64,000 nt of DNA from a virus, in the IMG/VR virus record IMGVR_UViG_3300028025_003852, positions 1 to 64,000 of that record; one strand, given 5' to 3'. The notes under the pieces are model-generated. The model was not told the DNA's origin. It was given only the letters and a program-made list of their open reading frames with translations, and did no database searches. The translations under genes and the position numbers were made by a program. Below are positions 2,834 to 27,505 of the stretch, piece by piece; positions within the stretch are counted from its first letter, which is position 1; each line of letters begins with the position of its first letter.

Positions 2834-2849
2834 TAATACCCACTATTTT

Positions 2850-13751: not shown

Positions 13752-14032
13752 GATATATTAATTATATCCTGAGTTTTTAATAAAATTACTACATGTTGTA
13801 TGAAACATTCCCTGGATACACAATATACTTAATTAATCGCTCTTAAATCGCGGCGTAAAATTCGGCGGCGTATAGAGATACCAAACACATACCAAATACC
13901 ACTATCTAAATATGTGTGATATCCTGGATATAACCCAGTCAAGTGCTTTCGGAAACCAGCGTAGTTGGTTCTTTAAACCAGCACAAATTTTCTCCTTATG
14001 CAGATAGGGAGATTTTTTGTTATACTATATAT

Positions 14033-14242
14033 ATGGGAAAAGTTGGAGATGATGTAAGCATATGGGATTTGCTTGATCCTAATATGCCGAGAAGTACAAG
14101 AGAACTTATGGAATCAAGATTGGCTATTTGTTATGAATGCCCTTTCTTTTTAAAAGGATCAAAGCGATGCTCCAAATGTGGATGTTTTATGAAGCTTAAG
14201 GTTTCTCTTGAACAGGCTAAGTGTCCTATGCATAAATGGTAA
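14033..14242 (+). CDS. Cys-rich metal-binding protein (DUF6171-like)
   Basis: RLAICYECP...CSKCGCF...K...CPMHKW; ATG 6 nt after TATACT. Confidence 0.7.
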   Translation: MGKVGDDVSIWDLLDPNMPRSTRELMESRLAICYECPFFLKGSKRCSKCGCFMKLKVSLEQAKCPMHKW

Positions 14243-14302
14243 TATATCCCTTTCAGGAGCAACTGCGTTGCTAATACCTCCGAAATTTGATACAATAGAT
14301 CT

Positions 14303-14482
14303 ATGACATATTATTCAGAAATCATCAATAAAGAAATGCTTGAACAAAACTTTGTTACTCAAAGAAAGACATCAAGACAGATTGCTCGTGAGTTTCACAT
14401 CTCAAGAAGAATGGTTAATAAGTATCTTCTTGACTATGGATTTATTAATGTAAAAGATTTAGAAGATAATGATCTTCCCTAG
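14303..14482 (+). CDS. Small HTH protein
   Basis: Hand translation ...KTSRQIAREFHISRRMVNKYL...; ATG 6 nt after TACAAT. Confidence 0.65.
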   Translation: MTYYSEIINKEMLEQNFVTQRKTSRQIAREFHISRRMVNKYLLDYGFINVKDLEDNDLP

Positions 14483-14503
14483 CTACCCTCTGAGATTTGT
14501 AAA

Positions 14504-14584
14504 ATGCTAGGAGATATCTTTGGTGGCCTTGTTGCTATAGTAGCTATCTTTGCTTTGATTGTTTATCTATCAGGATTGTACTGA
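14504..14584 (+). CDS. Possible 26-aa membrane peptide
   Basis: MLGDIFGGLVAIVAIFALIVYLSGLY; no clear RBS. Confidence 0.3.
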   Translation: MLGDIFGGLVAIVAIFALIVYLSGLY

Positions 14585-14822
14585 TCCATACCCTGGACCT
14601 TCTGAAAAATTATTGTTTTTCGATTTGGACATTTTCTGAATATTTTGTATTTGTGAACGATACACACTTTACAGTAACAATTCAAGTAAATTAGTCCGCA
14701 CACTGGTATCCGCCCTGCCTCAAAAAATATTCTAATCTATTTTTAGACTTATCGGCGTGTCGCATTGTCATTGTCCGTGGTGCATGATAGGTTATAGATA
14801 ACAACAAAGAATGGATAACAAA

Positions 14823-14897
14823 ATGGAAACAGGTTGCTACTCAGAGTGTGAGTATGTGTGTGAGTGTGTGCAGTATAAGGTAGGTGCAAGCAAATGA
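14823..14897 (+). CDS. 24-aa Cys-rich peptide
   Basis: METGCYSECEYVCECV... first ORF after the 14772 promoter. Confidence 0.4.
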   Translation: METGCYSECEYVCECVQYKVGASK

Positions 14898-15031
14898 AGT
14901 GTGAAGTGTGTGACTACTTTGACGCTAATGAAGTCATGGTATACAAGACAGAGATACTTAACTTATCTATGGTAGTCATGTGTGACTATTGCTTTCACGA
15001 GATATTGGAGATGAAGAATGAAACGGTCTAA
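14894..15031 (+). CDS. Small zinc-finger-like early protein
   Basis: MKCEVC...MCDYC; ATGA coupling. Confidence 0.55.
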   Translation: MKCEVCDYFDANEVMVYKTEILNLSMVVMCDYCFHEILEMKNETV

Positions 15032-15149
15032 GGCGTACTATGTAACAAGGGGTATTGCTAGGGCATTGACTCTATTGGTCAAAGCATCTTTGGTTGTTGG
15101 TGTAGTGTATGTGTTTGTGTTGTTGTATTGGGGAGCATTCTATCCCTAA
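15018..15149 (+). CDS. Small membrane protein
   Basis: GGAG RBS; hydrophobic C-terminal half. Confidence 0.5.
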   Translation: MKRSKAYYVTRGIARALTLLVKASLVVGVVYVFVLLYWGAFYP

Positions 15150-15294
15150 CGGCGTGTCGCCTTGACATACCCCCAGATCCAGGGCCGGGCGGCCTGTGGA
15201 TAACTATGTTACCATTTCGTTATAAGAAACACCCTATATGGGCTTTACATTGTCCGTGGTCTGTGATAGTCTGAAGACATAAGATAAAGAAACA

Positions 15295-15352
15295 GAGAGA
15301 GTGAGCCTAGCAAATAAGGTCGCAAGACATGAGCCTAGCAAATAAATCTCTC
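15295..15352 (+). ncRNA. Two-fold symmetric 5'-leader RNA motif
   Basis: GAGAGA/TCTCTC outer stem, GTC-GCAA-GAC hairpin, identical 16-mers TGAGCCTAGCAAATAA on both sides. Confidence 0.5.
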
Positions 15353-15374
15353 AATAAAGAATAGGAAATAGAAA

Positions 15375-15569
15375 ATGACATTAGCAGAAACAGGAATCAA
15401 GCAAGACTTGACTATCGGTAACGTGGTTGCCATTAGCCGTAAAGGTGTAATTCGTGCAAGCGGAATCATCGAATCAGTAAAGCAAATTAACCAAGACCGC
15501 TTTGACGTAACTTTCACTAACGGAAAGACTGAGTCAATGGTATGGGGAAAGACGCTCACCGTAGTTTGA
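15375..15569 (+). CDS. Small early protein (SH3-like beta barrel?)
   Basis: ORF after promoter 15251; DLTIGNVV pattern. Confidence 0.6.
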   Translation: MTLAETGIKQDLTIGNVVAISRKGVIRASGIIESVKQINQDRFDVTFTNGKTESMVWGKTLTVV

Positions 15570-15616
15570 GTGTCAGACCCTCATGTTAGAATAAAAACAA
15601 CAAGAAAGGAAAACTA

Positions 15617-15760
15617 ATGTATATTGTAGAAGTAATCAAGAAGGGAGTCGGAGTCGTTGAGACTTTCGGCTCACGGTCTAAGGCAGAAGCAGAAGCACAA
15701 AAGAACGCTTATGCTCTCATGTATCCTGACCATGTAGTAATGATTGAATGGAGTAACTAA
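15617..15760 (+). CDS. 47-aa early protein
   Basis: Own promoter (15571) and GAAAGGA RBS. Confidence 0.65.
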   Translation: MYIVEVIKKGVGVVETFGSRSKAEAEAQKNAYALMYPDHVVMIEWSN

Positions 15761-15926
15761 CGGCGTGTCGGCTTGACATACCCTGGCAATCGGGGGCCGG
15801 GCGATCCGGCCGCCTGTGGATAACTATTTACGAGAATTATTCTACGAGGCGGAAAACTATGCCCTAAAAACTTTTCACTGTCCGTCGCCCATGTTAGAAT
15901 GAAGACGTAAAGAAAGGTAAACTAAA

Positions 15927-16106
15927 ATGGAAATCAAAGAAATCAGAAAGAACGGAATCGGAAACGGTTTCTCAGTAATCAACCCTCAAGATGGGTTCCG
16001 CAAGGATAACACCATCTGGAATGGCACTTGCTCAGAGTGTGGTGAACGAGTGTATAACTCAGTAATGACTAAGTATGAGTGGAAACACCAGACCAAGTGT
16101 GTTTGA
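15927..16106 (+). CDS. 59-aa early zinc-binding protein
   Basis: Own promoter and RBS; CSEC...H...C. Confidence 0.65.
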   Translation: MEIKEIRKNGIGNGFSVINPQDGFRKDNTIWNGTCSECGERVYNSVMTKYEWKHQTKCV

Positions 16107-16155
16107 CTGTCTGAGGCTACTGCTAAAATAAAGACATAAAGAAAGGATAACTAAA

Positions 16156-16278
16156 ATGAAAGAATGTTTCTTGTGTGATGAGGGCACTACTGCCACTACT
16201 GTATCACCATACAACTACCCCGTTTGTGCTAGCCACTACAGCGAAGACATCCGTGAATTCGCTACCGACTACTCATAG
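16156..16278 (+). CDS. 40-aa early zinc-binding peptide
   Basis: Own promoter and RBS; CFLC...CASH. Confidence 0.6.
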   Translation: MKECFLCDEGTTATTVSPYNYPVCASHYSEDIREFATDYS

Positions 16279-16309
16279 ACAATAACCAACAACGAAAGGT
16301 AAAACTAAA

Positions 16310-16471
16310 ATGACAAATCACGAACGTATCTCTGGAATCTTAGAGACAATTCGAATTGCAAAGGGTGCAGAGTCTCACTCTGACGTTATGCCCTATGTGA
16401 TAGGCATGATGACCGCCGTCCTCAACGACTCACAGCTTGAGGCTATGGAAGAGGTAGCCAAGCAATACTAA
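16310..16471 (+). CDS. 53-aa early protein
   Basis: ACAACGAAAGG RBS. Confidence 0.65.
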   Translation: MTNHERISGILETIRIAKGAESHSDVMPYVIGMMTAVLNDSQLEAMEEVAKQY

Positions 16472-16624
16472 CATATTCCAGAAATGGAATGTGGGGCCGG
16501 TTGATCCGGCCGCCCCTCTTCCTATTTACGAAGGCTATTAAAAACCCTGGACTTTTGACCGCTGGACTTTTCACTGTCCGACGTATCTGTTATTCTTGTA
16601 TTACAAACAACGAAAGGATAACTA

Positions 16625-16813
16625 ATGCGATTCGACCCTATTTTTGGTGAGGCTAACGAGATTGTTGGCTACCTCGACGACATGGGCAACGAGTGGACTG
16701 TCGAGCAGGTCGAGGACTACTGGGATGTCTCGGGCAACGAGCCTGACGGCATGTGGCTTGATGAGGACGCTCTCAACTCTATCGGCTGGGGTAGCGACGA
16801 GGCTTACTTCTAA
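16625..16813 (+). CDS. Highly acidic 62-aa early protein
   Basis: 17 D/E versus 1 R; ends DEDALNSIGWGSDEAYF. Confidence 0.75.
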   Translation: MRFDPIFGEANEIVGYLDDMGNEWTVEQVEDYWDVSGNEPDGMWLDEDALNSIGWGSDEAYF

Positions 16814-16927
16814 ACTACCCAAAGGGGGGCCGGGGGCCGTTATCAAATCGTTACATTGGATTACGTACATTACGTTTTCACTGTCAGTCGCTCGTGTTAT
16901 TCTTGTATTACAACGAAAGGAAAACTA

Positions 16928-17095
16928 ATGGACAAGCAAATACTGGTATCGGTTTGGGTGCTCAATCAGTGGGCAGAAAACGCTCGTGTTGAGCAGGAGT
17001 ACTGGATTGAGAACAACAACGACGGATTGGCAGGCTACTTCGGTGGTCGGGCTGCTGCCTATGAGTTTTTACTCGCTGAGTATGCCAAAGACTAG
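16928..17095 (+). CDS. 55-aa early protein
   Basis: Start MDKQIL after promoter and RBS. Confidence 0.65.
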   Translation: MDKQILVSVWVLNQWAENARVEQEYWIENNNDGLAGYFGGRAAAYEFLLAEYAKD

Positions 17096-17149
17096 TGTCA
17101 TAGGCTACTGCTAAACTAAAACTAACAACAACGAAAAGGACACAATAAA

Positions 17150-17335
17150 ATGATGACACGCAAAGACTATGTTTCAACTGCTAAGATTCTCAATGACCTT
17201 TGGCTTGATTTGCCAATCAGTAACATTGACCTGTTTGAGGATACCGTTATGGCTTTCTCTAAAATGTTTGCAGAAGATAACGAACGATTCGACCACAAGA
17301 TTTTTTATAACGCTTGTTTCAAGGAGGAATACTAA
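17150..17335 (+). CDS. Conserved small phage protein
   Basis: MMTRKDY...A.IL...F..DN.RFD...F..AC pattern. Confidence 0.75.
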   Translation: MMTRKDYVSTAKILNDLWLDLPISNIDLFEDTVMAFSKMFAEDNERFDHKIFYNACFKEEY

Positions 17336-17463
17336 TGAACCTGGTACCATTGTTTGCTGTAATGTTTGGGCTACTCGTAATCAATACCGTGATTATTTTG
17401 TACCTGTTGGCTAAATACAAAGAAGCCAAGCATGAGGCACAGATAAACCGACCACCCTTCTAG
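17335..17463 (+). CDS. 42-aa membrane protein ending PPF
   Basis: AAGGAGG RBS, TAATG coupling, hydrophobic N-terminus. Confidence 0.55.
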   Translation: MNLVPLFAVMFGLLVINTVIILYLLAKYKEAKHEAQINRPPF

Positions 17464-17551
17464 GAGGGCCGGACGATCTTCGTTATAAAGTTGTTACGAA
17501 GACCTTACGAAACGCCCTGGAAATGTCCGAGGTATCTGCTAAGATTAGTAT

Positions 17552-17719
17552 ATGAAGAAAAAGACCAAGCACAAAGCAACAGAAAACAAAGCCTACATCG
17601 AGGCTATGCGTGAGTTGCGTCGCTCCAATGCGGCTACTGCCCATGACAACCGACCTAACCGTCAACGCACTCGTGGTGCAGTCAAGGCTCATGCTATTGG
17701 AGAATACAAGGCTCTGTAA
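17552..17719 (+). CDS. Basic Arg-rich small actinophage protein
   Basis: ELRRSNAATAHDNRPNRQRTR...AI; leaderless after promoter 17524. Confidence 0.7.
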   Translation: MKKKTKHKATENKAYIEAMRELRRSNAATAHDNRPNRQRTRGAVKAHAIGEYKAL

Positions 17720-17785
17720 CTCAGTGGTTAGAGTGCCACCCTGTCACGGTGGAAGTCGCCAGTTCAAGTCTGGTCAGAGTCGCCA
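17710..17785 (+). tRNA. tRNA-Asp(GTC)
   Basis: Cloverleaf; anticodon arm CCACC-CTGTCAC-GGTGG; encoded CCA. Confidence 0.93.
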
Positions 17786-17786
17786 A

Positions 17787-17861
17787 TCCCCTTTAGCTCA
17801 ACGGCAGAGCAACGAGCTGTTAACTCGTAGGTTCTTGGTTCGAATCCAAGAGGGGGAGCCA
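17787..17861 (+). tRNA. tRNA-Asn(GTT)
   Basis: Anticodon arm ACGAG-CTGTTAA-CTCGT; TTCGAAT T-loop; encoded CCA. Confidence 0.95.
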
Positions 17862-17932
17862 GGATCCGGCCCCACCTTTTCACTGTCAGTCGTAGGTGTT
17901 ACGATAGTATTACAAACGAAAGGAAATTAGCC

Positions 17933-18112
17933 GTGGCTTATGTGTCTGAGTATGGTAACTATGGTGGTGAGGGAGTAATTGTATTCCCAGACTATCAACT
18001 TACCCCTGAACAATGGGATGAATTAGATATTCTTCCAGACAACGACAAGATGTCGTATGTTAAGCGTATTTTTGATGAAAACGAGTTTGGATATATGGAG
18101 TTTAACGACTGA
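17933..18112 (+). CDS. 59-aa acidic early protein
   Basis: GTG after promoter 17884 and GAAAGGA RBS. Confidence 0.6.
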   Translation: MAYVSEYGNYGGEGVIVFPDYQLTPEQWDELDILPDNDKMSYVKRIFDENEFGYMEFND

Positions 18113-18291
18113 TGAAACGTGAATCATACATTCCACCCAAGGGAATCTCAGAAAAAGAGTTCCTCACAATAGTTGCAAATGACCTAGTAGATATGCTAGT
18201 CTTAAAAGAGGTAGACTTTACCTATGTTCCAAGTGTTCGTGACTTCATTGTCAAGTATTCCAAATCCCGACACCGAAAGGGTAGAAAATGA
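18112..18291 (+). CDS. 59-aa hypothetical protein
   Basis: TGATG coupling. Confidence 0.55.
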   Translation: MKRESYIPPKGISEKEFLTIVANDLVDMLVLKEVDFTYVPSVRDFIVKYSKSRHRKGRK

Positions 18292-18431
18292 GAAGCAATC
18301 CATTCCCCGAAGATGAACAGGCTACCGAAATCATGGAAGCCCTAGACGACTACTATGCAAATCCTCAAGAGTATTCATTCCGTGACCTTGAGGAAATCTT
18401 CCAAGACCGTGACCCATTCGAGTTTCTCTAA
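18288..18431 (+). CDS. 47-aa acidic hypothetical protein
   Basis: ATGA coupling, GAAAGGG RBS. Confidence 0.55.
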   Translation: MRSNPFPEDEQATEIMEALDDYYANPQEYSFRDLEEIFQDRDPFEFL

Positions 18432-18440
18432 GGAGTAGTA

Positions 18441-18650
18441 ATGCCCAAGTATCGCATAAAGGCGACGGTAACGGTAGAGATGAACCTACCTGACGACTTC
18501 GACCCCAATAGGGATAACGAAGGAGACATTCTCTATTCCCTTGATGGATACATTCGTGAAGATGGTGTAGACGGTTGGAGACTGTGGAAGGCCGCATTGG
18601 CTGACAATGGTATGTGGCACAATGACGCAGACTATAAAATCGTAGAATGA
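18441..18650 (+). CDS. Hypothetical early protein
   Basis: AAGGAG RBS. Confidence 0.65.
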   Translation: MPKYRIKATVTVEMNLPDDFDPNRDNEGDILYSLDGYIREDGVDGWRLWKAALADNGMWHNDADYKIVE

Positions 18651-18790
18651 ACATACCCCTAATTGTTATAACAGGGTTTGTATGCTTTGTGGTTTTCTTT
18701 CCGCTAATTGCTTATATCTTTTATGCCGTCGAGGTTTTGAGTTATAAGTTTGGTAACAAGGTTGACGATACAGCAAATTTGGAGGACTAG
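18647..18790 (+). CDS. 47-aa membrane protein
   Basis: ATGA coupling; long hydrophobic stretch. Confidence 0.55.
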   Translation: MNIPLIVITGFVCFVVFFPLIAYIFYAVEVLSYKFGNKVDDTANLED

Positions 18791-18856
18791 GGGGGCCGGG
18801 CCGCTTTCACTGTCAGAGGTGCGTGTCATAATGGTATTACAACGAAAGGAAAAATT

Positions 18857-18979
18857 ATGCCGAATATGAAACTCATCCCCACTCGTGCAGGATATGTCTA
18901 TGAGTGTGTTGAGTGTGACTTTCAACTCACACCTGAGCAAGCAGACGAACACGAATGTATGACCGTCTTTAGTTTTTAG
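18857..18979 (+). CDS. 40-aa zinc-finger peptide
   Basis: YECVEC...HEC; own promoter and RBS. Confidence 0.6.
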   Translation: MPNMKLIPTRAGYVYECVECDFQLTPEQADEHECMTVFSF

Positions 18980-19024
18980 TGTCAGACGCTACTGTTAGAA
19001 TAAGAGAAACGAAAGGAAAACGCA

Positions 19025-19519
19025 ATGGGCTTGGATATGTATTTAGAGGTTCGCAAGTTTGTCGAAACCCACGATTGGGTAAACGAGAATGGCGAGTTTG
19101 TTCGTAAGGAAACTCCAGGAGCAGAGGCTATCAAGGTTGCAGGTCTTGAGAACCTTACTTCTAAAGAGGCTGTTGGCATTACTGTTCAGACTACCGCTGT
19201 CTACTGGCGTAAGGTCAACGCTATCCACAACTGGTTTGTAAATGTCTGTGCTAATGGTGTAGACGAGTGTCAGCAGATTCCTGTAAAGCGTGAGAACCTG
19301 CAAGCCTTGCGTGACCAAGTAGAATTGGTTGTTCGCAAAAAGAATCCAGCAGTTGCTCAAGAGTTTTTGCCAACCTCATCAGGTTTCTTCTTTGGCTCAA
19401 CTGAGTATGACGAGTGGTATTGGTCAGATATGCAATTCACTCTTGATGAACTCAACCGTGTGTTGTCTGAGACGGTAGACGACTATGGGATTGACTTCTT
19501 CTATCAGGCTTCTTGGTAA
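19025..19519 (+). CDS. Widespread conserved phage early protein
   Basis: MGLDMYL...YWRKVNAIHNWF...LPTSSGFFFGSTEYD...YQASW. Confidence 0.85.
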   Translation: MGLDMYLEVRKFVETHDWVNENGEFVRKETPGAEAIKVAGLENLTSKEAVGITVQTTAVYWRKVNAIHNWFVNVCANGVDECQQIPVKRENLQALRDQVELVVRKKNPAVAQEFLPTSSGFFFGSTEYDEWYWSDMQFTLDELNRVLSETVDDYGIDFFYQASW

Positions 19520-19524
19520 CAAGA

Positions 19525-19549
19525 CGAGGGGTGCGACTCGATAACGCAT
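19525..19549 (+). ncRNA. H-type pseudoknot, copy 1
   Basis: S1 CGAG/CTCG, 8-nt loop, S2 GTGCG/CGCAT. Confidence 0.45.
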
Positions 19550-19618
19550 AACCCTTCGGGGGCCGGGCCGCTTGATCTTGCAACTTTCACTGTCCGTGGC
19601 TACTGTTAGTATAAGTAT

Positions 19619-20341
19619 ATGACAAAGTTGATTCGCTCAAAAGACCGTAAAGTAACCAACGCTGTAACGCCTAACGGCAAGCAAGCCTCTATCGCTAACA
19701 CTTTTGGTTTGCCTTCTGGCACTGCCTTCTCATGTCCAGGTGCTACTAGCGTATGCGAGACTATCTGCTATGCTGGCAAGTTGGAAAAGGTATTCAAGGG
19801 TGTGCGTATCAACCTAGAGCACAACTGGGCATTGGTCAAAGACGCTGACTATCTTACTATCTACGACCTTCTCTATGAAATGATTAGCGATTTTGTTTCT
19901 GATTGCGAACGTCGTGGTGCAGAAAAGTTATTCCGCATTCACTGGGACGGTGACTTCTTTAATGAAGAATACACCTATGCATGGCGTGATGTGATTTGTG
20001 AGTTTGAGGATGTGCAATTCTGGGCATACACTCGTAGTGCTTTCGCTGTGCCTATCCTAATTGACATTCCTAACCTTGGCTTCTATTTCTCAACTGATAG
20101 TGCCAACAAGGATTTGGCTATCTCTCTCAAAGAGACTCACGGTATCAAGTTGGCATACCTTGCTCAGACGTTTGCTATTGGTAAGGCTGACATTCTTGAG
20201 ATTACTGGGCAGACTGCTATTCCATGCCCCGAAAATAACAAAAAGATTCCTATGATTAGCGAGAAGGGTAGTGCCTGTGTGACCTGTGGGCAATGTATCT
20301 TCCAACGCAATGATATCCTGTTTTCTGCTACAAAGAAGTAG
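19619..20341 (+). CDS. GP88-like protein with radical-SAM-like Cys motif
   Basis: CPGATSVCETICYA; FRIHWDGDF; FWAYTRS; C-terminal CP...CVTCGQC. Confidence 0.75.
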   Translation: MTKLIRSKDRKVTNAVTPNGKQASIANTFGLPSGTAFSCPGATSVCETICYAGKLEKVFKGVRINLEHNWALVKDADYLTIYDLLYEMISDFVSDCERRGAEKLFRIHWDGDFFNEEYTYAWRDVICEFEDVQFWAYTRSAFAVPILIDIPNLGFYFSTDSANKDLAISLKETHGIKLAYLAQTFAIGKADILEITGQTAIPCPENNKKIPMISEKGSACVTCGQCIFQRNDILFSATKK

Positions 20342-20423
20342 CGGAGGGCAGGGCCGGGTGATCCGGCCGCCCACCCCCAATGTAACAATTAGGTTACGAT
20401 AGGCTGAAAATAGCCCCTAGGAC

Positions 20424-20452
20424 TTGATATTGTGTGTGTTTTCTGTCATACT
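20424..20452 (+). promoter_or_regulatory. SigA-type promoter
   Basis: TTGATA-17-CATACT with extended TG; similar promoters at 22582-22610 and 23814-23843. Confidence 0.65.
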
Positions 20453-20516
20453 TGATATATCAGCAAGACCGCTGGTAATTAGGTTGGCTGGCTCGCCAAC
20501 AGAAATGAGGAAGCAA

Positions 20517-20663
20517 ATGGGTAACATCAACATTGGAGACACCTTCACCACGCAGAAGTCTGGCGTATCGGGAACGGTTCAGGAAATCATCAAGAACGCA
20601 AACGGTTCTACTCGTATTCGCCTGTCGGTGAACGGTGCAGACCGTTGGACTACGGTCAAGTAA
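20517..20663 (+). CDS. 48-aa SH3-like small protein
   Basis: Start MGNINIGD after GAGG RBS. Confidence 0.65.
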   Translation: MGNINIGDTFTTQKSGVSGTVQEIIKNANGSTRIRLSVNGADRWTTVK

Positions 20664-20680
20664 GGTCAGACCCTAGTCTG

Positions 20681-20708
20681 TCTGCTGGGCATCAGATAAA
20701 ACTGCCCA
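20681..20708 (+). ncRNA. H-type pseudoknot, copy 2
   Basis: S1 TCTG/CAGA, S2 TGGGCA/TGCCCA, TAAAAC linker. Confidence 0.6.
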
Positions 20709-20742
20709 CTCAAATCCAAAAGCCAAATGAAAGGAAAACATA

Positions 20743-21192
20743 ATGGCTCGTTCACTTGCTGTGAAGATTCCCACCGCTACACTTATTGCTGACATTGAGG
20801 CAAGCATCGCTGACATTGAGGCTAAGGTTGCTACATACCCTGCCGACATGGAAGCATACCGTAAGGCACAGAAGGCACACCAACAGACTGTTCTCAAGAC
20901 TGTTATTGAGGCTCTCAAGAACCCCGACAACATTGGCGAAGAGTATGGCTCAATCGTTCGTGTTCAGCAAAACCGTTATGGTAATGGTAATGTAGAGATT
21001 TCGGTAAACACGGAACTGCTCTCTGTCCCACAGCCTCCCGAGTGTCCCTCTAACCCAAATGCCAAAGAGTCGTTTGGTCGTGACTACACTAGCCGTCTTG
21101 AGTTGCTGAAGAAGAACCTGAAGGTTCTCAAGATGACAAACCAAGAGGAAGTCAACGCCTCCACCTACAACACGGTGATTGACCTCCTCTAG
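20743..21192 (+). CDS. Coiled-coil hypothetical protein
   Basis: GAAAGGA RBS; helical N-terminus. Confidence 0.8.
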   Translation: MARSLAVKIPTATLIADIEASIADIEAKVATYPADMEAYRKAQKAHQQTVLKTVIEALKNPDNIGEEYGSIVRVQQNRYGNGNVEISVNTELLSVPQPPECPSNPNAKESFGRDYTSRLELLKKNLKVLKMTNQEEVNASTYNTVIDLL

Positions 21193-21226
21193 ACTCCATA
21201 CGCCCCGAAAGGGATATGTGGAAAAT

Positions 21227-21254
21227 GACCTGAGCAGGTCTATGTAAACTGCTC
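21227..21254 (+). ncRNA. H-type pseudoknot, copy 3
   Basis: GAC-CTGAGCAG-GTC...TAAAC-TGCTC. Confidence 0.6.
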
Positions 21255-21413
21255 GCCCTCTCCCCTGTGAAGCGTCTGGATAGATTGCTGGTAAACAGGG
21301 GAGGGGAGCCGGGTAGATCAGATCCGGCCCCGAATATAACAAATTAGTTACGATGTTATAAAAAAATAGGCCTAAAACTTGATATTGTCAGAGGTATCTG
21401 CCATACTGGGAAT

Positions 21414-21629
21414 ATGGAAAAAGTAAAGGGAACGTATTTTGTTGTGACTGGTGAGTCTTACTATGTGAAGGCTGACTCTGAGGAAGAGGCTGAGGCTGTC
21501 TTCAATGTAGGTATGGGATATATGGATGAGCATAACTATCCTGACTTTGATACCGCCGATGCTTTCAGCCGTATCGAGTATACCGATACCTACACTACCT
21601 ATGAGCCTATCACTGATTTCAGTGTCTGA
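21414..21629 (+). CDS. Acidic DpnD/PcfM-like small protein
   Basis: YYVKADSEEEAE motif; leaderless. Confidence 0.6.
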   Translation: MEKVKGTYFVVTGESYYVKADSEEEAEAVFNVGMGYMDEHNYPDFDTADAFSRIEYTDTYTTYEPITDFSV

Positions 21630-21668
21630 GGCTACTGTTACACTAAAGATACAACGAAAGGGAAAAGA

Positions 21669-21926
21669 ATGATTGACAAAGCATTTGGTTTGCAGGAAGC
21701 GGCTCGTAAGTCTGCTTTCGCTCCGTCTGTAAAGTTGTCTGCTCTGATTATCCGTGATGGATACCAGAACATGACACAGCAAGAAATGGAAAAGGCTCTC
21801 ATAGAACTTGTGTCTGAGGCTGTTGTCGTTTCTTCCTACCACACTACGATGGTTCTTCTTGATGAGGAAGACCAGAACACACTCGCAACAACGATTGACG
21901 AACTACAAGAAATGGGGAACAACTAA
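21669..21926 (+). CDS. Hypothetical protein
   Basis: Own promoter and RBS. Confidence 0.7.
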   Translation: MIDKAFGLQEAARKSAFAPSVKLSALIIRDGYQNMTQQEMEKALIELVSEAVVVSSYHTTMVLLDEEDQNTLATTIDELQEMGNN

Positions 21927-22414
21927 TGTTGGACTATGAGAACATTGAAGTAAAAGATTTGCCACCGTCGCCTATCGAGCAGGGTACCCTTATCGGTATC
22001 GCTGTCGATACTAAGATTGAGGAACTTCAGAAAGAACTTGAGGGTGTCAAGGCAGAACTGGATGCCTCTCGTGCAAACGCTGATGACTGGCGTAACCGTC
22101 AGACATCTATGTATAACCAACTTGGTGAAATGCAGGACAGACTCAAGGGTATCCTGACTGAACTGGTCAACTCTGGTTCCATTGAAAAGGAATACGCAAA
22201 GACCATTGCAGACCACTGTGGCATTGAGGTTACTCGTTACATTGGTGTGTCTGGAAATATCACATTCTCTGCAAATGTCGAGGTATCGGTATTCGATGAA
22301 GATGACTTGGATACACACAACTTCAGTGCAACATACCTGTGCCTTGAGTATCAGGGTGAAGATGTCATTGACTTGAACTATGACATTGAGAACGTTGAAG
22401 AGGACTACAGTTAG
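21926..22414 (+). CDS. Acidic coiled-coil protein
   Basis: TAATG coupling. Confidence 0.75.
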   Translation: MLDYENIEVKDLPPSPIEQGTLIGIAVDTKIEELQKELEGVKAELDASRANADDWRNRQTSMYNQLGEMQDRLKGILTELVNSGSIEKEYAKTIADHCGIEVTRYIGVSGNITFSANVEVSVFDEDDLDTHNFSATYLCLEYQGEDVIDLNYDIENVEEDYS

Positions 22415-22428
22415 TAGGCCTAATAGCT

Positions 22429-22468
22429 AGGGTAGGGACTTGTTAATTCCTTTCTTAGCCTCTACCCT
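22429..22468 (+). ncRNA. Hairpin with anti-Shine-Dalgarno loop
   Basis: 12-bp stem (one mismatch); loop TGTTAATTCCTTTCTT. Confidence 0.4.
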
Positions 22469-22471
22469 CAC

Positions 22472-22499
22472 GGACCTGAGCATGTCCTTAAAAGGCTCA
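22472..22499 (+). ncRNA. H-type pseudoknot, copy 4
   Basis: S1 GGAC/GTCC, S2 TGAGC/GCTCA. Confidence 0.6.
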
Positions 22500-22646
22500 T
22501 TCTCATACCCAGGGGGGCCGGGCCGATCCGGCCGCCATTGTAACAATTGGGTTACGAACACCTAAAAATACCACCTAGGACTTGTAATTATCTTGTATCT
22601 GTGTCATACTGATATAAGTAAACAAACCTCTAACGAAAGGCAACAT

Positions 22647-23666
22647 ATGCACGAATTGGAACAGGGCAAGAACGGCGAGGTTGCTTTTGCATCTTTCCGT
22701 GAGCCTGCTTGGCATGGTCTTGGGACTGTGTTCGAGGAAGAAGTAAAGACGGCAGATATGCTGAAGTTGGCACACCTTGATAATTGGAATGTTCGTCTTG
22801 AGGAGATTCCTATTCCCGAGGGATTTGTCTCTGACAAGACTAACTATTTTGTTGCTCGCACTAACCCCTTCAACTCTGAGCAGAACGACATTCTTGGAAT
22901 CGTTGGGCAACGCTACAATACGCTTCAGAACGAATCACTGTTTGAGTTTGGTGACAACCTGCTAGACGGTGGTGGTCGTTGGGAGACGGCTGGCTCTATC
23001 AAGGGTGGTCGTGTTGTGTTCGGTGCTTTGGCACTTGAGCGTGAAACGGTGCTTGACCCTAATGGTGTGGCTGACAAGGTAAACACTTACCTTCTTGTCA
23101 ACACATCGCACGATGGGTCGGTGTCCATTATGGCGAGCATCACGCCTGTGCGTGTCGTGTGTGCGAACACTCTGAACATGGCTATCGGTTCAGGCACAGG
23201 TCACTGGCGTAGTGCTAAGCAGTCGTTCAAGATTCGTCACACTCAGACAGCCGAGGGTCGTGTTCAGGCTGCTCGTGAGGCTTTGGGTCTTGCCAATGAC
23301 TACATGGATGAGTTTGACAAGATGGCTCAGGCTATGATTGAGACAGAAATCACGAATGACCAATTCCAGGAGATTCTTCGTGCAGTCTACCCCATGCCCG
23401 AAAAGGATGCTAAGGGTGCTATGTCAAAGTGGCAGACAAAGTTGGAACTCATCGAGGACATCTACGGTGGACAGTTCAACGACACGATTGCTGGAACGGC
23501 TTGGGGTGCATTGAACGGCATCACCGAACGTCTTGACTGGTATCGTGCAGGACGCAAGGGCAACAGCGAAAGCGTGTTGGCTTCTGCTTCTGGCTTCGAC
23601 CCTGCTATCAACGCTGAGAAGAATCGTATTCTCAAGATTGTTCAGGAACTCACAATGGCTTCCTAG
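22647..23666 (+). CDS. DUF932 phage/plasmid-like protein
   Basis: AWHGLG, ETAGSIKGGRVVF, NTSHDGS, TPVRVVCANTL, GTAWGALN; start MHELEQ after GAAAGG. Confidence 0.9.
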   Translation: MHELEQGKNGEVAFASFREPAWHGLGTVFEEEVKTADMLKLAHLDNWNVRLEEIPIPEGFVSDKTNYFVARTNPFNSEQNDILGIVGQRYNTLQNESLFEFGDNLLDGGGRWETAGSIKGGRVVFGALALERETVLDPNGVADKVNTYLLVNTSHDGSVSIMASITPVRVVCANTLNMAIGSGTGHWRSAKQSFKIRHTQTAEGRVQAAREALGLANDYMDEFDKMAQAMIETEITNDQFQEILRAVYPMPEKDAKGAMSKWQTKLELIEDIYGGQFNDTIAGTAWGALNGITERLDWYRAGRKGNSESVLASASGFDPAINAEKNRILKIVQELTMAS

Positions 23667-23676
23667 TCGGTGACTC

Positions 23677-23704
23677 CCTGCCCTCCCTTGTGGAGGGTGG
23701 GGGG
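23677..23704 (+). terminator. GC-rich hairpin, putative U-less terminator
   Basis: CCCTGCCCTCC-CTTGT-GGAGGGTGGGG directly after the DUF932 stop. Confidence 0.55.
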
Positions 23705-23849
23705 CCGGGTGATCAGATCCGGACTCTACTTAGTATATACATTCATTATATTTGTATTACGATGAAGTAAAAAATACGCCAGATTACGAATAGGTAACAA
23801 TCACCCTGAAAAGTTGCATGTCAACCATGTTTTCTGTCATACTGAATAT

Positions 23850-23951
23850 ATGAATGAATTTGAGATAGCGATGCAAGTTGTATTGTCAGAGGCTCTTGAT
23901 AAACTAGAGTCTATACCAGATGAAGAAATCGAAAGGTTGTATATATCCTAA
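23850..23951 (+). CDS. 33-aa leaderless peptide
   Basis: ATG 6 nt after CATACT; TAATG coupling to the next ORF. Confidence 0.45.
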   Translation: MNEFEIAMQVVLSEALDKLESIPDEEIERLYIS

Positions 23952-24127
23952 TGGGAATTTACTATGTTAAGACTGTTGTAGAGTTTGGTGGAGAAGTTAT
24001 GGCTGATACCGCCGAGGAAGCAGAGAAACTTGGATGGCACTGGGATACTGAATTGCAGTATGACGGAGTCTACTCAATCGATGTAGAAGTTGTTGACGAG
24101 GATAACGATGAGGAGGACACCGAATGA
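23951..24127 (+). CDS. Acidic DpnD/PcfM-like small protein
   Basis: YYVK...EVMADTAEEAE. Confidence 0.6.
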   Translation: MGIYYVKTVVEFGGEVMADTAEEAEKLGWHWDTELQYDGVYSIDVEVVDEDNDEEDTE

Positions 24128-24243
24128 TGAAGGTATCGGAAGTGGAGCGTCTTATCGGTAATGCGTTCCCCAACATGCATGTGTTTGTAGATAAGAACAA
24201 CGAGATTATTGTTTGCACAGGAGAGGAAGCAATCGATGAGTAA
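24127..24243 (+). CDS. 38-aa hypothetical protein
   Basis: GAGGAGG RBS; coupled. Confidence 0.45.
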   Translation: MKVSEVERLIGNAFPNMHVFVDKNNEIIVCTGEEAIDE

Positions 24244-24397
24244 GTATTCAATTAAGGTAGAACAAATTGGACATACCGTTGTAGAGGTTGAGGCTGAAGA
24301 TGAGTTTCAGGCTGAAGACATTGCAATGGAGATGTGGGGCAATGGTGAACTTGACCATCTCTTTATCTTTGATGTAGAACTAATTGTGGATAACTAA
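24236..24397 (+). CDS. Acidic DpnD/PcfM-like small protein
   Basis: KYSIKV...VEVEAEDEFQA. Confidence 0.6.
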   Translation: MSKYSIKVEQIGHTVVEVEAEDEFQAEDIAMEMWGNGELDHLFIFDVELIVDN

Positions 24398-24630
24398 TGC
24401 GTATGCCAAAGGTAGCCGACCAAACTTGGAGGCGAATCTACCATTCCAGGGTAGCAGAGGTATACGAATCAGATAACGAGAACGACTACTACAAGGTAGT
24501 ACTAGAAGGTATGCGACCAAAGTATTTCTATGGTGAGTTAGGCTTTCAGAATTACCAACGCTATGTGTATGACTTTGAGATGGCTACCCTGTATTCACAG
24601 GACAACGCCATGATGAAGAAGTATCGGTAG
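24397..24630 (+). CDS. Hypothetical protein
   Basis: TAATG coupling. Confidence 0.7.
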   Translation: MRMPKVADQTWRRIYHSRVAEVYESDNENDYYKVVLEGMRPKYFYGELGFQNYQRYVYDFEMATLYSQDNAMMKKYR

Positions 24631-24647
24631 GCGTGGTAAAATAGAAT

Positions 24648-24881
24648 ATGACACCAACTATTTATACTAAGCCTAACTGTGTACAGTGTGATGCAACCAA
24701 ACGTTACTTTGATAACAAAGGTGTGGCCTACACTACCGTCGATATTACACAGGATGCGGACGCACTCGATCTACTTATTGCCGAGGGATTCAAGTCAGCT
24801 CCTGTTGTTAATATAGATACACACTGGTGGAGTGGATTCCAACCAGACTTAATAGATAAACACATCGCTAACTATTCTTAG
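24648..24881 (+). CDS. nrdH: Glutaredoxin-like NrdH
   Basis: IYTKPNCVQC...APVV...WSGFQPD. Confidence 0.93.
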   Translation: MTPTIYTKPNCVQCDATKRYFDNKGVAYTTVDITQDADALDLLIAEGFKSAPVVNIDTHWWSGFQPDLIDKHIANYS

Positions 24882-24909
24882 TGTCCGACGCTAATGGTAA
24901 GGTGGTAAC

Positions 24910-25296
24910 ATGACAGCAACTATAGACCTTTCCTATGAGGAATGGATTGACAAGTACAAGCCAGAGTTAGATGCCGACGGTAGCCCACGAATGTATGAGA
25001 CCTATGGCAAAGACTACGAGTATGTTCAGAGTGTAGACACTGAGTATCTTTGGACATGGACCGATGGTGGTGACTACAGTGTTATCACTAATGGATTTAG
25101 TTTTGTTAATCGCTTAGGCTACTACGTTTGTACCGTGCCATGTAGCACAGACATTTCTGTTGAGGTAGATGTGTATGTGCCAACAGAGTGTGAAGAAACC
25201 AAGATTCATTATTGGACAGAGCATGAGCGTTATGACGGAACCATGACAACCATTTGCTCAGAATGCGAGGTAGACAAAAATGACATTGACAGCTGA
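24910..25296 (+). CDS. Hypothetical phage protein
   Basis: YETYG...WT...G.SFVNRLGY pattern; leaderless after promoter 24882. Confidence 0.75.
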   Translation: MTATIDLSYEEWIDKYKPELDADGSPRMYETYGKDYEYVQSVDTEYLWTWTDGGDYSVITNGFSFVNRLGYYVCTVPCSTDISVEVDVYVPTECEETKIHYWTEHERYDGTMTTICSECEVDKNDIDS

Positions 25297-25669
25297 GGAG
25301 GAAGCCTTGCTTGCTAATCTAAACTATGACCTTAACATTTGGGACGAGGGTATGCACATGACCTGTCACCTACCAAAAGAAGAGCAGTACTCACAATGGA
25401 AGATTTCAGTACACAACGTACATGAACTACCAGATGGTTACATTCAGTGTGGTGATTGGATTGAGGATATCAATATCTATCTTACCGAAGATGAGGTGAA
25501 GGCCCTCACACTTGGATGGGCACCTGAGCTTGGTGGAGACTACACTGGTGACAGTGATTTCTTCCTTGACATCGATGGATTCTTTACTATCTATAAAGAC
25601 ATTCCCGAGAGGGTAAAGCAAGAACTACTATCACTACCGCCGATTGACATTCAGAAGGTTGAATGGTAG
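25280..25669 (+). CDS. Acidic hypothetical protein
   Basis: GAGG RBS. Confidence 0.7.
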   Translation: MTLTAEEEALLANLNYDLNIWDEGMHMTCHLPKEEQYSQWKISVHNVHELPDGYIQCGDWIEDINIYLTEDEVKALTLGWAPELGGDYTGDSDFFLDIDGFFTIYKDIPERVKQELLSLPPIDIQKVEW

Positions 25670-25681
25670 AATGGAGAGACA

Positions 25682-25906
25682 ATGCGAATTACACAAAATG
25701 AACGAGCAGCCCAAAAGATTCTAGATGCTGTAAACGATTACACCTTAGACACATACATGATTGGATTTCACATCTTCCAGTTTGCACCATTGGATTTGTA
25801 TATGAAATTGGATGAAATCATGGAAGGTGTTGACATGGCAATCAAAGCAGAGAATGAGAGAGTAGAGAAGAAGAATGAGCAACGAAAGCAAAACGCCCCT
25901 TTCTAA
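25682..25906 (+). CDS. Hypothetical protein
   Basis: GGAG RBS. Confidence 0.7.
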   Translation: MRITQNERAAQKILDAVNDYTLDTYMIGFHIFQFAPLDLYMKLDEIMEGVDMAIKAENERVEKKNEQRKQNAPF

Positions 25907-26222
25907 CAAGTGTGACATCTTGGCTGAGTTGTGGATTCAGTATAAGGGCGATGAGAACTTTGCAGACTTCATGCAATACAATGACTTGGGCTTGCCCCTT
26001 GCTTATGCAATATCAAATGACATTATCAAAGCAAGCGAACGAGCAACATTGTTTGTAGAAGAAACCTTTGCAACTCTCATGTATGCTCTTGCTGATGATT
26101 CAGAAGATAACATCACTTGGACTGATGATGAAGGCAACGATGAACCAGAAGCATGGATGGCTCAAGAGTTTGAGACTCTAGAAGATGTATTCTTGTTCTT
26201 TGGAACTGACAGGGCAAAGTAG
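25875..26222 (+). CDS. Acidic hypothetical protein
   Basis: KCDILAELW...YNDLGLPLAY. Confidence 0.75.
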   Translation: MSNESKTPLSNKCDILAELWIQYKGDENFADFMQYNDLGLPLAYAISNDIIKASERATLFVEETFATLMYALADDSEDNITWTDDEGNDEPEAWMAQEFETLEDVFLFFGTDRAK

Positions 26223-26228
26223 CTGGTA

Positions 26229-26254
26229 CCCTGCCTCCCTTCGGGGAGGTGGGG
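26229..26254 (+). terminator. Hairpin with CUUCGG loop closing the early region
   Basis: CCCTGCCTCC-CTTCGG-GGAGGTGGGG. Confidence 0.65.
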
Positions 26255-26376
26255 CCGGGCCTCCCAAACCACCAAAACACCTATATCCCAAAATACCTTT
26301 ACGATCCGATCAAAAAATACGCCTGAAAGTTATTACGAAGAATCAAAAAATACGCCTGAATAGAAAGGAGCATCAA

Positions 26377-26457
26377 ATGGAAATACCAATTGTAATATTT
26401 GTTATTACTATAGCAATTGCTATTACTGTTATTAATGTATGGTTCAAGAGACATTAG
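26377..26457 (+). CDS. 26-aa membrane peptide
   Basis: GAAAGGAG RBS; MEIPIVIFVITIAIAITVINVWFKRH. Confidence 0.5.
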   Translation: MEIPIVIFVITIAIAITVINVWFKRH

Positions 26458-26776
26458 ATCTACCCCCGGTTTTTGGGGGTCCGCAGGGTATTACGAAGAA
26501 TCCAAAATTATCCCTGAAAAATACAAATTATCCCTATATATATAAACAAAATACATCATTTATCCTATATATACAAACACTTATTTGGTCATATTTGGAT
26601 AGCCAGATAGCCCAATTTGGATATTTGGGGGGTATGGGATACAGGGTTTGGGGTTTGGTGGATACTAGATGTAGTGGTTTGGCATTACGATGGCCCCATA
26701 TATAGGGCTATAATTACTCAAACAAATATCAAACCAATCAATTACAGTCAGATAATAAATCAAACAGTAAGATGTA

Positions 26777-26841
26777 TGTGCATAAAATGTGGATAAAATG
26801 TGCATAAGTTGTTCACAATATGTGCATATCCCTGTGCATAA
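26777..26841. promoter_or_regulatory. Cluster of six DnaA-box-like 9-mers
   Basis: TGTGCATAA 26777, TGTGGATAA 26788, TGTGCATAA 26799, TTGTTCACA 26809, TGTGCATAT 26821, TGTGCATAA 26833. Confidence 0.7.
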
Positions 26842-26968
26842 CTTAGCATATTGGGACAAAAAAGGATTAAGAACGACCTATTTTTTACGCCTGAAAGTCT
26901 ATTGTATTATCACTAGGATTGGTTTTATATATAGGTATTATGATGGCTTTGTTTTATACCCCGAAAAA

Positions 26969-27133
26969 TTACTGAGTTACTGATCCATGTGCCCTAGGCT
27001 TATAAGCATTGATACTTCTATAACATTTAGCATGTACTGTCATATCTGTTCTATACTTAGGCTTACGATGCTTGCGTCTATAGGTTTTAGTCTTATCGTC
27101 TTTGTGTATTAGTTGATTGCAATACCAGCACAT
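26969..27133 (-). CDS. 54-aa zinc-finger-like protein
   Basis: MCWYC...VHAKC. Confidence 0.5.
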   Translation of the reverse strand: MCWYCNQLIHKDDKTKTYRRKHRKPKYRTDMTVHAKCYRSINAYKPRAHGSVTQ

Positions 27134-27289
27134 TTATTGCTCTTTTTCTCGAAGATCAGCCAATGCTCTCTCATACCCAATCTTCATTGCCACTACTTCT
27201 TCCCTATATGGATCACGACCAGAGTTACTTTGAGTAAATATCTTTAGTGACTCATATGCTTTTTCCATTTGTTTTGTGCTTGGTGTCAT
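27134..27289 (-). CDS. 51-aa hypothetical protein
   Basis: AAGGA RBS; tightly packed between neighbours. Confidence 0.5.
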   Translation of the reverse strand: MTPSTKQMEKAYESLKIFTQSNSGRDPYREEVVAMKIGYERALADLREKEQ

Positions 27290-27505
27290 TTATAGTTCCT
27301 TGATTTGTTTCAACAATACCGCCACTTGTCGTGGCGTAAGATTACCAATCACATCATCTGTAACTGGAGACTCATAATAGATACGATCATTCTGTAGCAC
27401 AGCTAATTCGTATAGTCCCTGGTCGTATCCAATGCTTGCAGTGTTACGAATAACTGAAGCACCGTAACCATTCTCAAAGTACCATCTACGTTTGTAGTCT
27501 TTCAT
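27290..27505 (-). CDS. Conserved small phage protein
   Basis: FENGYGASVI...GLYELAVL...TDDVIGNL. Confidence 0.8.
   Translation of the reverse strand: MKDYKRRWYFENGYGASVIRNTASIGYDQGLYELAVLQNDRIYYESPVTDDVIGNLTPRQVAVLLKQIKEL

Follow-up and report, generated by a model that had tools for sequence, protein, structure and literature searches.

A sharply bounded, palindrome-purged block of putative early genes retains GATC at GC-rich gene junctions in the genome of an uncultured, probable actinophage

Results and discussion

The 64,000-nucleotide stretch analyzed here (the window) covers positions 1-64000 of a viral contig of 72,814 bp, IMG/VR record IMGVR_UViG_3300028025_003852, with a CheckV completeness of 67%. 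It contains a block of small + strand genes (14584..26981; 38 genes, two tRNAs and 22 spacers) that has been purged of short palindromes in genes and spacers alike, and in which GATC is nevertheless kept, nearly always in GC-rich elements between the genes. Our preferred account is a joint one, to which we give a probability of roughly 60%: the block would be an early module carried in the leading copy of a terminal repeat and purged by host restriction, its GC-rich spacers would be junction modules between transcription units, and the GATC at the GC-rich box of each module would be recognized by a factor.

The palindrome purge is confined to one block

Word counts in the early gene set (38 curated + strand genes, 9,228 nt) were compared with 1000 synonymous-codon shuffles within the set, which preserve the amino acids and the block's own codon usage; 59 open reading frames (ORFs) of at least 100 codons elsewhere on the contig (50,523 nt) form the comparison set. 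A first-pass annotation of this DNA had claimed that GATC is purged from the early genes, and the codon-aware counts bear this out. The genes hold one GATC against 32.2 expected, a value as low as which is seen in none of the 1000 shuffles, and the ORFs elsewhere hold 176 (167.3 expected). Aspartate before a C is encoded by GAC 25 times and by GAT once in the early genes (54 and 93 times, respectively, elsewhere), and GATC is also absent from the other two reading frames of the block's genes.

Other palindromes are depleted in the early genes as well, among them AGCT (5 against 40.6 expected), TTAA (13 against 38.3), ACGT (13 against 36.5) and GTAC (12 against 34.0), the last three each at about 0.35 of expectation, while CCGG, GCGC and CGCG are absent. 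Over all 4-mers, the observed/expected ratio of the 16 palindromes has a median of 0.35, and that of the remaining 240 words a median of 1.02 (Mann-Whitney p 9e-7). In genes outside the block, strong avoidance is limited to CCGG (1 against 57 expected), GCGC (6 against 58) and CGCG (3 against 26); these three words are avoided contig-wide, and more strongly than non-palindromic words made of G and C only. CTGG is in excess (observed/expected 1.41; CCAG 1.10), and loss of CCGG by deamination of methylated cytosine was considered and dropped, the CTGG excess not being distinguishable from an effect of selection. TACG, which is not a palindrome, is also depleted in the early genes, with 9 copies where 31.5 are expected; this would fit the avoidance of a regulatory word within genes.

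The 22 early spacers (2,336 nt; 1000 dinucleotide shuffles) share the loss of AGCT (1 against 6.8 expected), TTAA (3 against 13.4), GTAC (2 against 8.7) and TCGA (1 against 5.5), which argues that the cause acts on the DNA and not on translation. Enriched in the same spacers are GATC (14 against 6.5 expected, a count reached by 6 shuffles), CCGG (19 against 10.2, reached by 2) and GGCC (25 against 9.7, reached by none).

Significant depletion of palindromes is confined to one contiguous block, whose edges are sharp and are marked by GATC at 14583 and at 26982. For GATC, AGCT, TTAA, GTAC, ACGT and TCGA pooled, observed/expected is 0.08-0.58 in the 1-kb bins 15001-26001 (n=12) and 0.42-1.03 elsewhere. 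Both the purge and its boundaries are direct observations.

The purged words vary among relatives

The DUF932 gene of the block (PF06067; 22647..23666, +; E 2.6e-49) was the anchor for finding related loci in IMG/VR, of which there are 399; the best 80 were fetched and examined (L001-L080). GATC and AGCT are both sparse in the block of L001-L006 and L011, GATC alone is sparse in that of L009 and L015-L019, and the pattern persists in relatives down to 68% protein identity. Many distant relatives have no AGCT anywhere in the locus. Which words are purged varies by lineage, as changing host enzymes would produce. Among 72 distinct DUF932 genes, 65 lack GATC, and all together hold 26 copies against 286 expected; in the remaining 7 lineages GATC has not been purged from this gene. 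By automatic gene calls, which agreed 83% with the curated calls in the window and make the relatives' ORF counts a rough check, GATC occurs at 2.99 per kb outside ORFs and 1.19 per kb inside, with the higher density outside in 61 of 64 loci.

Separately, many of the loci L020-L080 have no AGCT in 11-21 kb, six have no GGCC, and CGCG is near zero in almost all. These losses are lineage-specific and reflect avoidance over the whole locus.

The block as a probable leading terminal repeat

The contig comes from an uncultured freshwater phage, probably of an actinobacterial host, and a distant relative of Streptomyces phages that have terminal repeats of about 11 kb. By family searches, the contig encodes a collagen-like tail fibre along with a DnaE-type DNA polymerase, a DnaB-type helicase and ribonucleotide reductase. 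Streptomyces phages of clusters BE and BK have polymerases 53-55% identical to this one, and among cultured phages siphoviruses of Streptomyces are the nearest relatives. The cultured-phage collection gave no match in a near-identity search, and in a distant search of the same collection the DUF932 gene was the sole match. The window also encodes WhiB (39621-39794), which is found in 5 of 5 phage records and, among 14 control genomes, in Corynebacterium only, a distribution that points to an actinobacterial host. The 24 sequencing runs listed as containing the sequence, all in contig form and none of them from RNA, bear the labels freshwater, aquatic or subsurface metagenome.

Streptomyces phage Jay2Jay (cluster BE) has an exact direct terminal repeat of 11,438 bp, and direct terminal repeats of about 11 kb are given for cluster BE1 phages in the available text of PMC5764925. 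The GP88-family gene of the block (PF17338; 19619..20341, +; E 1.5e-51) is 47.7% identical to Jay2Jay gene 10, which is present in both repeat copies, and the DUF932 gene is 53.0% identical to Jay2Jay gene 5. These two homologues lie inside the Jay2Jay repeat in the order and orientation seen in the block. From this synteny we infer that the block, at 14.58-26.98 kb, is probably a single assembled copy of a long direct terminal repeat and so leading DNA, the first to enter the cell.

The block is 12.4 kb long, with a non-coding stretch at either edge, of 340 nt on the left and 532 nt on the right. The left one (14483..14822) holds no curated gene and marks the switch from - strand late genes to + strand early genes; it is a candidate genome end. 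The right one (26458..26989) carries repeated TGTGCATAA/TGTGGATAA and TTATCC words; it might bound a repeat, act as an origin or mark a stop in DNA entry. A 59-residue protein, encoded by 14303-14482 (+) immediately beyond the left edge of the purged block, weakly matches DNA-binding and HNH-associated families.

Restriction avoidance in first-injected DNA, which the first-pass annotation had proposed, is supported indirectly. The purge is specific to palindromes, includes the spacers, is sharply bounded and concerns words that vary by lineage, and the block shares its synteny with the Jay2Jay repeat; together these sequence features are consistent with such avoidance. Searches of the early proteins by family, solved structure and atlas name no nuclease, methylase, anti-restriction function or function that protects later DNA. 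In Jay2Jay itself (L104/L105) GATC is missing from the 38 kb examined, both within the terminal repeat and outside it, where 147 copies are expected from composition, and TTAA and CGCG are also low.

GATC is retained at the gene junctions

Between 14590 and 26300 there are 13 GATC sites, roughly one to the kilobase, of which 12 are inside 13 GC-rich elements that total only 277 nt, and one, at 24768, is in a gene. This placement had been reported in the first-pass annotation with every coordinate correct, and the density it gave for the first 3 kb of the window, at least 10 GATC, agrees with the 11 found in bases 1-3000. The association with the GC-rich spacers holds for the 12 sites and less well for the elements, 10 of 13 carrying GATC (those at 16823, 18791 and 26245 are without). 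CCGG, as the annotation had also stated, is in all 13 elements and otherwise only at 26466 and 61985, so that 19 of the 21 copies in the whole contig are inside the elements. Gaps between GATC sites range from 388 to 1711 nt, and their coefficient of variation is 0.37, whereas sites placed at random give 0.89 (P 0.0006).

The single coding site of the block is in a glutaredoxin/NrdH-like gene (24648..24881, +; Pfam Glutaredoxin, E 9e-14), mid-way in the sole long operon that has no box. Its offset is unchanged in all near relatives (6 of 6), even though the codon after it varies between L, R and Q, and it is the sole GATC in 6.7-8.0 kb of orthologue-aligned coding DNA of L001, L002, L003 and L006.

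In eight relatives (L012 was dropped as a duplicate of L013), 45 of 67 boxes have GATC within 40-nt flanks. Between near relatives the core word of the box changes from GGCCGG to GGCGCC and the adjacent GATC is unchanged. The 250 nt upstream of DUF932 contain GATC in 70 of the 72 distinct genes, in several motif contexts; the site is missing in 2 of the 7 lineages with an unpurged DUF932 gene and in none of the 65 purged ones. The retention of GATC is a real anomaly, kept against the trend of the other palindromes. It most likely belongs to the recognition target of a trans-acting factor and, as part of such a target, could not be purged. In L020-L080 a CRP-like palindrome, TGTGA-N6-TCACA, recurs in the spacer upstream of DUF932 and often contains the GATC of that spacer.

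No match to the Dam-type methylase families (PF02086, PF01555, PF05869) was found in 10 phage records, two of them rated 100% complete and the others 34-88%. The idea that the non-purging lineages carry a Dam methylase of their own was dropped, with no matches in five such records (34-84% complete).

CCGG and GGCC are the spelling of one genome's box

The first-pass annotation had also read the CCGG and GGCC words of the spacers as deliberately placed sites, together with GATC, serving as decoys, methylation sensors or pre-set break points. This part of its interpretation is not supported for CCGG and GGCC. At the same junctions relatives use other GC-only inverted-repeat words, many of them without any 4-bp palindrome, and 64 of the 80 best related loci have no CCGG at all. 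Relatives thus keep the stem without the palindromic words, an outcome that the annotation itself had held to speak against its reading, and the alternative it had mentioned, U-less hairpins at gene ends, is the better reading for these words. For GATC, this sequence analysis gave no sign of decoys, methylation sensing or cutting.

Each genome has one constant box word, and its relatives have different ones, GGCGCC and GGGGTCGCCCC among them. The word is GGGGCCGGG in the window and L001, GGGCGGCGCC in L002/3/6, GGCGGCCCC in L008/9, GCTGCGCCCC in L011, GGGTCGCCCC in L012/13/16/17 and GGGCTCGCC in L014/19, and in the spacers of Jay2Jay GTCCGnCCCGGACA comes after a UUCG hairpin. Inverted repeats of 4-6 bp, made of G and C only and spaced by 3-5 nt, account for most versions, and many contain no 4-bp palindrome. 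Because relatives keep the GC-only inverted repeat with other words, CCGG and GGCC merely spell out the box of this genome. Where a relative does have CCGG, the word is confined to the box position, about once per spacer, so that the box tolerates a word avoided in the remainder of the genome.

The notion that each lineage stockpiles a palindrome of its own in the box (GGCGCC, GGGCCC, CCTAGG, GACGTC and CACGTG were seen) was not supported; by a rough tally, palindromic and non-palindromic GC-rich 6-mers pass the repeat criterion at similar rates, about 1.7% and about 1.1% of words. The likeness of the boxes in one genome may stem from gene conversion or from a sequence-reading factor that they share. 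Between the window and L001 there are three gaps, with a small cassette inserted, deleted or replaced at 17327-17544 and 18638-19007, the edges being at or near spacers. Contig joints from related strains (sides of 22-33 letters at 90% likeness) are unreliable and were not used as evidence.

The junction modules

Each of the 13 long spacers begins immediately after a stop codon or tRNA, and its box precedes a promoter. First in order comes a hairpin specific to the gene, with a loop of the UUCG type in several cases; it is followed by the constant GC box, TTACGA and inverted-repeat words, a sigma-70-like promoter and a strong ribosome-binding site, with a DnaA box in two of the 13. Nine shorter spacers have a promoter or ribosome-binding site only and no GC box. 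A GC-rich stem-loop immediately behind the stop codon, as in intrinsic (Rho-independent) terminators, is present here; the U tract of such terminators is absent at the boxes of the window, and in distant relatives a U tract does follow the gene-specific hairpin.

The 13 GC boxes, all on the + strand, vary in form. Box 1 (15176..15194) has GATC at its 5' side and a DnaA-box 9-mer directly after it, and box 2 (15792..15814), which consists of GGCCGG, a 5-nt loop ending in GAT, and CCGGCC, is also followed by a DnaA-box 9-mer. Box 3 (16492..16517; z -5.3) has GATC in the loop and 3' arm, with a variable hairpin at 16472-16493 before it. Full hairpins with GATC form box 9 (20349..20372; z -3.9), preceded by a variable hairpin at 20324-20345, and box 11 (22511..22536), upstream of the DUF932 gene. 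Two GATC are found in box 10 (21300..21331), which has a long loop, and in box 12 (23695..23722; z -4.3), which follows a strong variable hairpin at 23674-23704 and folds at -34.4 kcal/mol on the + strand against -21.9 for the reverse complement.

The remaining boxes are reduced. Boxes 4 (16823..16839) and 7 (18791..18803) are short forms without GATC, the latter abutting a class A promoter, and box 8 (19557..19577) is a short form with GATC 3' of the box and a small TTCG-loop hairpin before it. Box 5 (17464..17478) is a 5' arm only, followed by GATC. Box 6 (17860..17875) is a 3' arm form with GATC; it comes directly after the tRNA pair of the early block (tRNA-Asp and tRNA-Asn, 17710..17861, +), and a class A promoter follows 2 nt on. 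Box 13 (26245..26261; z -3.0) has no GATC inside; a TTCG-tetraloop hairpin precedes it (26229-26250) and a GATC doublet lies downstream (26303/26308). At 11 of the 13 boxes the fold of the + strand equals or exceeds that of the reverse complement in stability. An Rfam search of 14000-27500 gave nothing beyond the two tRNAs.

The candidate promoters, all on the + strand, are consensus matches of two classes. Class A, exemplified by 15873..15901 (TTTCAC, 16 nt ending in TGT, TAGAAT), has nine starts: 15565, 15873, 16102, 16569, 16876, 17878, 18805, 19585 and 21617. Class B, exemplified by 20424..20452 (TTGATA, 17 nt, CATACT), has further copies at 21379 and 22582, and an inverted repeat TGTAAC..GTTACG is found before each. 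TTACGA words occur at 20378-20398, 21333-21353 and 22537-22557, with the inverted repeat preceding the class B promoters, and in other spacers. N4-type hairpin promoters were rejected: the largest ORFs encode 1392, 1194 and 1090 residues, and none is of the size of the giant virion RNA polymerase.

The DnaA-box 9-mer TGTGGATAA occurs five times in the window against 0.81 expected. Four copies are in the early block (15195-15203, 15815-15823, 24385-24393 and 26788-26796), two of them directly after GC boxes, and the fifth is at 49842-49850 on the - strand. Distant relatives have one or two copies after the GC box in nearly every early spacer. Host DnaA could be used or titrated by the leading DNA through these sites. 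Upstream of the DUF932 gene, a structure GGACCTGAGCA..GTCC..AAACTGCTCA is conserved across the clade (22468-22505 in the window); a U tract follows it in distant relatives, as in a canonical terminator, and none follows in the window.

Elsewhere in the window, 34138-38403 (+) is a run of five genes, the two checked of which match glycosyltransferase families; the run may serve to glycosylate the virion or the DNA.

Weighing the explanations

In the account we prefer, the block would be an early module that is in the cell and expressed before any phage counter-measure. Host restriction enzymes would then select away short palindromes in this block only, in genes and spacers, and DNA entering later would retain its palindromes except CCGG, GCGC and CGCG. 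The GC-rich spacers would be the junctions between early transcription units, ending or insulating one and starting the next, with parts that run from a hairpin, its loop often UUCG or GNRA, through the GC box, words resembling operators, and DnaA boxes to a sigma-70-type promoter and a ribosome-binding site. The near-identical modules would be kept uniform by recombination or by a shared sequence-reading factor, and GATC, as part of the constant box or touching it, would be actively kept at about one per unit.

Several observations weigh against this account. The case for terminal-repeat status of the block is one of homology. IMG/VR classes the record and nine relatives as linear, without end repeats, and exact-match contig depths, which are uninformative on this point, show no twofold cover over the block. 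Family, structure and atlas searches of the early proteins found no factor that reads the box or GATC. The 19 CCGG in the block are at odds with the active avoidance of this word elsewhere in the genome. As hairpins the boxes are uneven: only four of the 13 67-nt windows fold clearly better than shuffles, a stem of at least 6 bp is present in only six boxes, the box word of L008/L009 forms no obvious hairpin, and no box has a U-tract terminator, a scan for which gave 8 terminator-like sites against 9.8 expected. The placement of GATC is also less strict in other genomes. The 55 distinct GP88 genes hold 90 GATC against 129 expected, and their 150-nt flanks contain GATC in only 15 and 22 of 55. 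In distant relatives GATC is usually present in the GP88 gene and usually missing from the flanks. In L067 and L020 some half of the GATC in the block falls inside called ORFs. Downstream of DUF932 GATC is present in 72 of 72 cases, a figure that is inflated because in distant relatives this GATC lies in a tRNA gene. The rule that GATC occurs between genes only thus weakens with distance.

A different origin of the block, by recent transfer or as an artefact of composition, would explain a deviating word usage, and its G+C of about 0.43-0.47 against about 0.40 elsewhere and its opposite GC skew would fit. The depletion, however, stands against shuffles that keep the amino acids and the block's codon usage, the non-palindromic 4-mers are at expectation, and relatives share the pattern; the codon shuffles and the DUF932 relatives already contradict this explanation, which we give hardly any weight. 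If instead an endoribonuclease of host or phage cut GAUC in RNA, early messages would avoid the word and the intercistronic sites would be processing points. It is the transcribed early genes that show the depletion, the sites are at transcript ends beside hairpins with RNA-type UUCG and GNRA loops, and tRNAs are embedded in the early transcripts. Being palindromic, GATC does not tell the strand. The co-depleted words, however, are all DNA palindromes, depletion of the other palindromes reaches into the spacers, late genes are not depleted of GATC, and searches of the early proteins by family, structure and atlas found no such nuclease; we regard an RNA-level cause as very improbable. It is unlikely, though less so, that GATC has no role and has merely been spread within a short repeat by gene conversion, which would restore it despite the purge. 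The context GATCCGG common to 8 of the 12 sites, boxes that are alike within a genome and unlike between genomes, and the small-cassette differences from L001 at spacer edges would all be expected of such hitch-hiking. It accounts poorly for the adjacent GATC that is kept when the core changes from GGCCGG to GGCGCC, for its position 5' of, inside or 3' of the core depending on the copy, for the conserved nrdH site outside any repeat, and for the loss of other palindromes from the same spacers.

A bolder possibility, doubtful but less so than the foregoing, is that GATC is programmed punctuation: one site per early unit, and none elsewhere, would be positively selected as a point of cutting, nicking or methylation, so that an attack on GATC, whether by a restriction enzyme of the host or a nickase of the phage, would break the expendable leading repeat copy only between self-contained promoter-gene-hairpin cassettes. 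In a variant, the methylation state would time early expression. If true, early genes could be expressed from pieces of the DNA, with the genome preserved by the trailing repeat copy; given a second copy of the repeat, the leading one would be dispensable. This would fit the roughly 30-fold purge of GATC from genes with its twofold enrichment in spacers, the position of the sites after the gene-specific hairpin and ahead of the next promoter, their regular spacing, and the site kept through amino-acid change in the one long operon that lacks a box. It would also fit the way the site shifts between motifs within the same spacer across relatives, and its loss upstream of DUF932 in unpurged lineages alone. 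Against it, cutting has no evident benefit, sites that are merely tolerated would need no keeping, the regular spacing follows from that of the transcription units, no Dam-type methylase family was matched in the 10 phage records, and distant relatives have many GATC inside genes. Actinobacteria are generally not known to have Dam, which also counts against this possibility. Recognition of GATC by a factor, within a restriction-purged leading repeat, remains the explanation we prefer.

Comparison with known systems

Rusinov et al. reportedly described in 2018 a genome-wide avoidance of restriction sites in phages, with depletion of Type II palindromes. Unlike such avoidance, the depletion here has two layers, CCGG, GCGC and CGCG being avoided contig-wide and GATC, AGCT, TTAA, GTAC and ACGT in the block only.

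The match of restriction avoidance in leading DNA with a known principle, seen in T5 and the murciaviruses, is supported indirectly. According to the available text of PMC12455610, acquiring a site for EcoRI within the first-step-transfer region of T5 confers sensitivity, and sites elsewhere are irrelevant; a 10,219-bp terminal repeat is mentioned in the available part of PMC8594841. The first-step-transfer DNA of T5 resembles the block in comprising some 10-12 kb of early genes that enter first and work before protection, an order of entry that for the block would follow from its homology. The two phages have no sequence relationship, and two-step entry, as in T5, is hypothetical for this phage. 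Many 4-bp palindromes are purged here, against one 6-bp site in T5, and the regular retention of GATC has no T5 counterpart in the available portions of these accounts (PMC12455610, PMC8594841). In the Marinomonas murciaviruses (Autographiviridae), PMC12455610 reports, in the part available, experiments that show restriction pressure confined to first-injected DNA, sensitivity being decided only by motifs within that region. That case concerns a Type I motif in podoviruses and rests on experiment; here the words are Type II-like palindromes in a long-tailed relative of actinophages, and the case is one of word statistics.

The junction modules resemble the PeSL cassettes of T4-type phages, composite terminator/promoter repeats that flank small variable early genes and act as exchange points, as described in the available text of PMC4122927 and PMC2839356. 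A stem-loop and early promoter repeated between small early genes are found here too (13 boxes, 9 class A and 3 class B promoters). The modules would work like PeSL and yet are not PeSL, as this is no T4-type myovirus and no sequence is shared. They belong to another phage family and are built in two parts, a variable hairpin and a constant GC-only inverted repeat, without a U tract, and their exchange is suggested by only three gaps relative to one relative, L001, unlike that of PeSL.

A likeness is also seen in Streptomyces cluster BE phages such as Jay2Jay, whose repeat has GP88 and DUF932 in the same order and whose spacers have a UUCG hairpin, a GC-rich inverted repeat and a promoter. Unlike the window, Jay2Jay has no GATC in the 38 kb examined, does not avoid CCGG, has a G+C of 49-55% and infects another host genus.

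Conclusions

The block is a clean example, from sequence alone, of restriction pressure on one part of a phage genome and not the whole, in a large uncultured clade; such sub-genomic pressure was shown by experiment only recently, according to the available text of PMC12455610. The spacers give a caution for motif-based inference, in that words of restriction type can be by-products of a repeat whose copies are kept alike in a genome. GATC, conserved as punctuation and in one gene kept while the adjacent amino acid changes, is an oddity that is concrete and testable and has no ready explanation. With metagenomic contigs alone, purged blocks of this kind could serve to predict the end of a phage genome that is first to enter, the place of a terminal repeat collapsed in assembly, and the short words cut by the host's enzymes.

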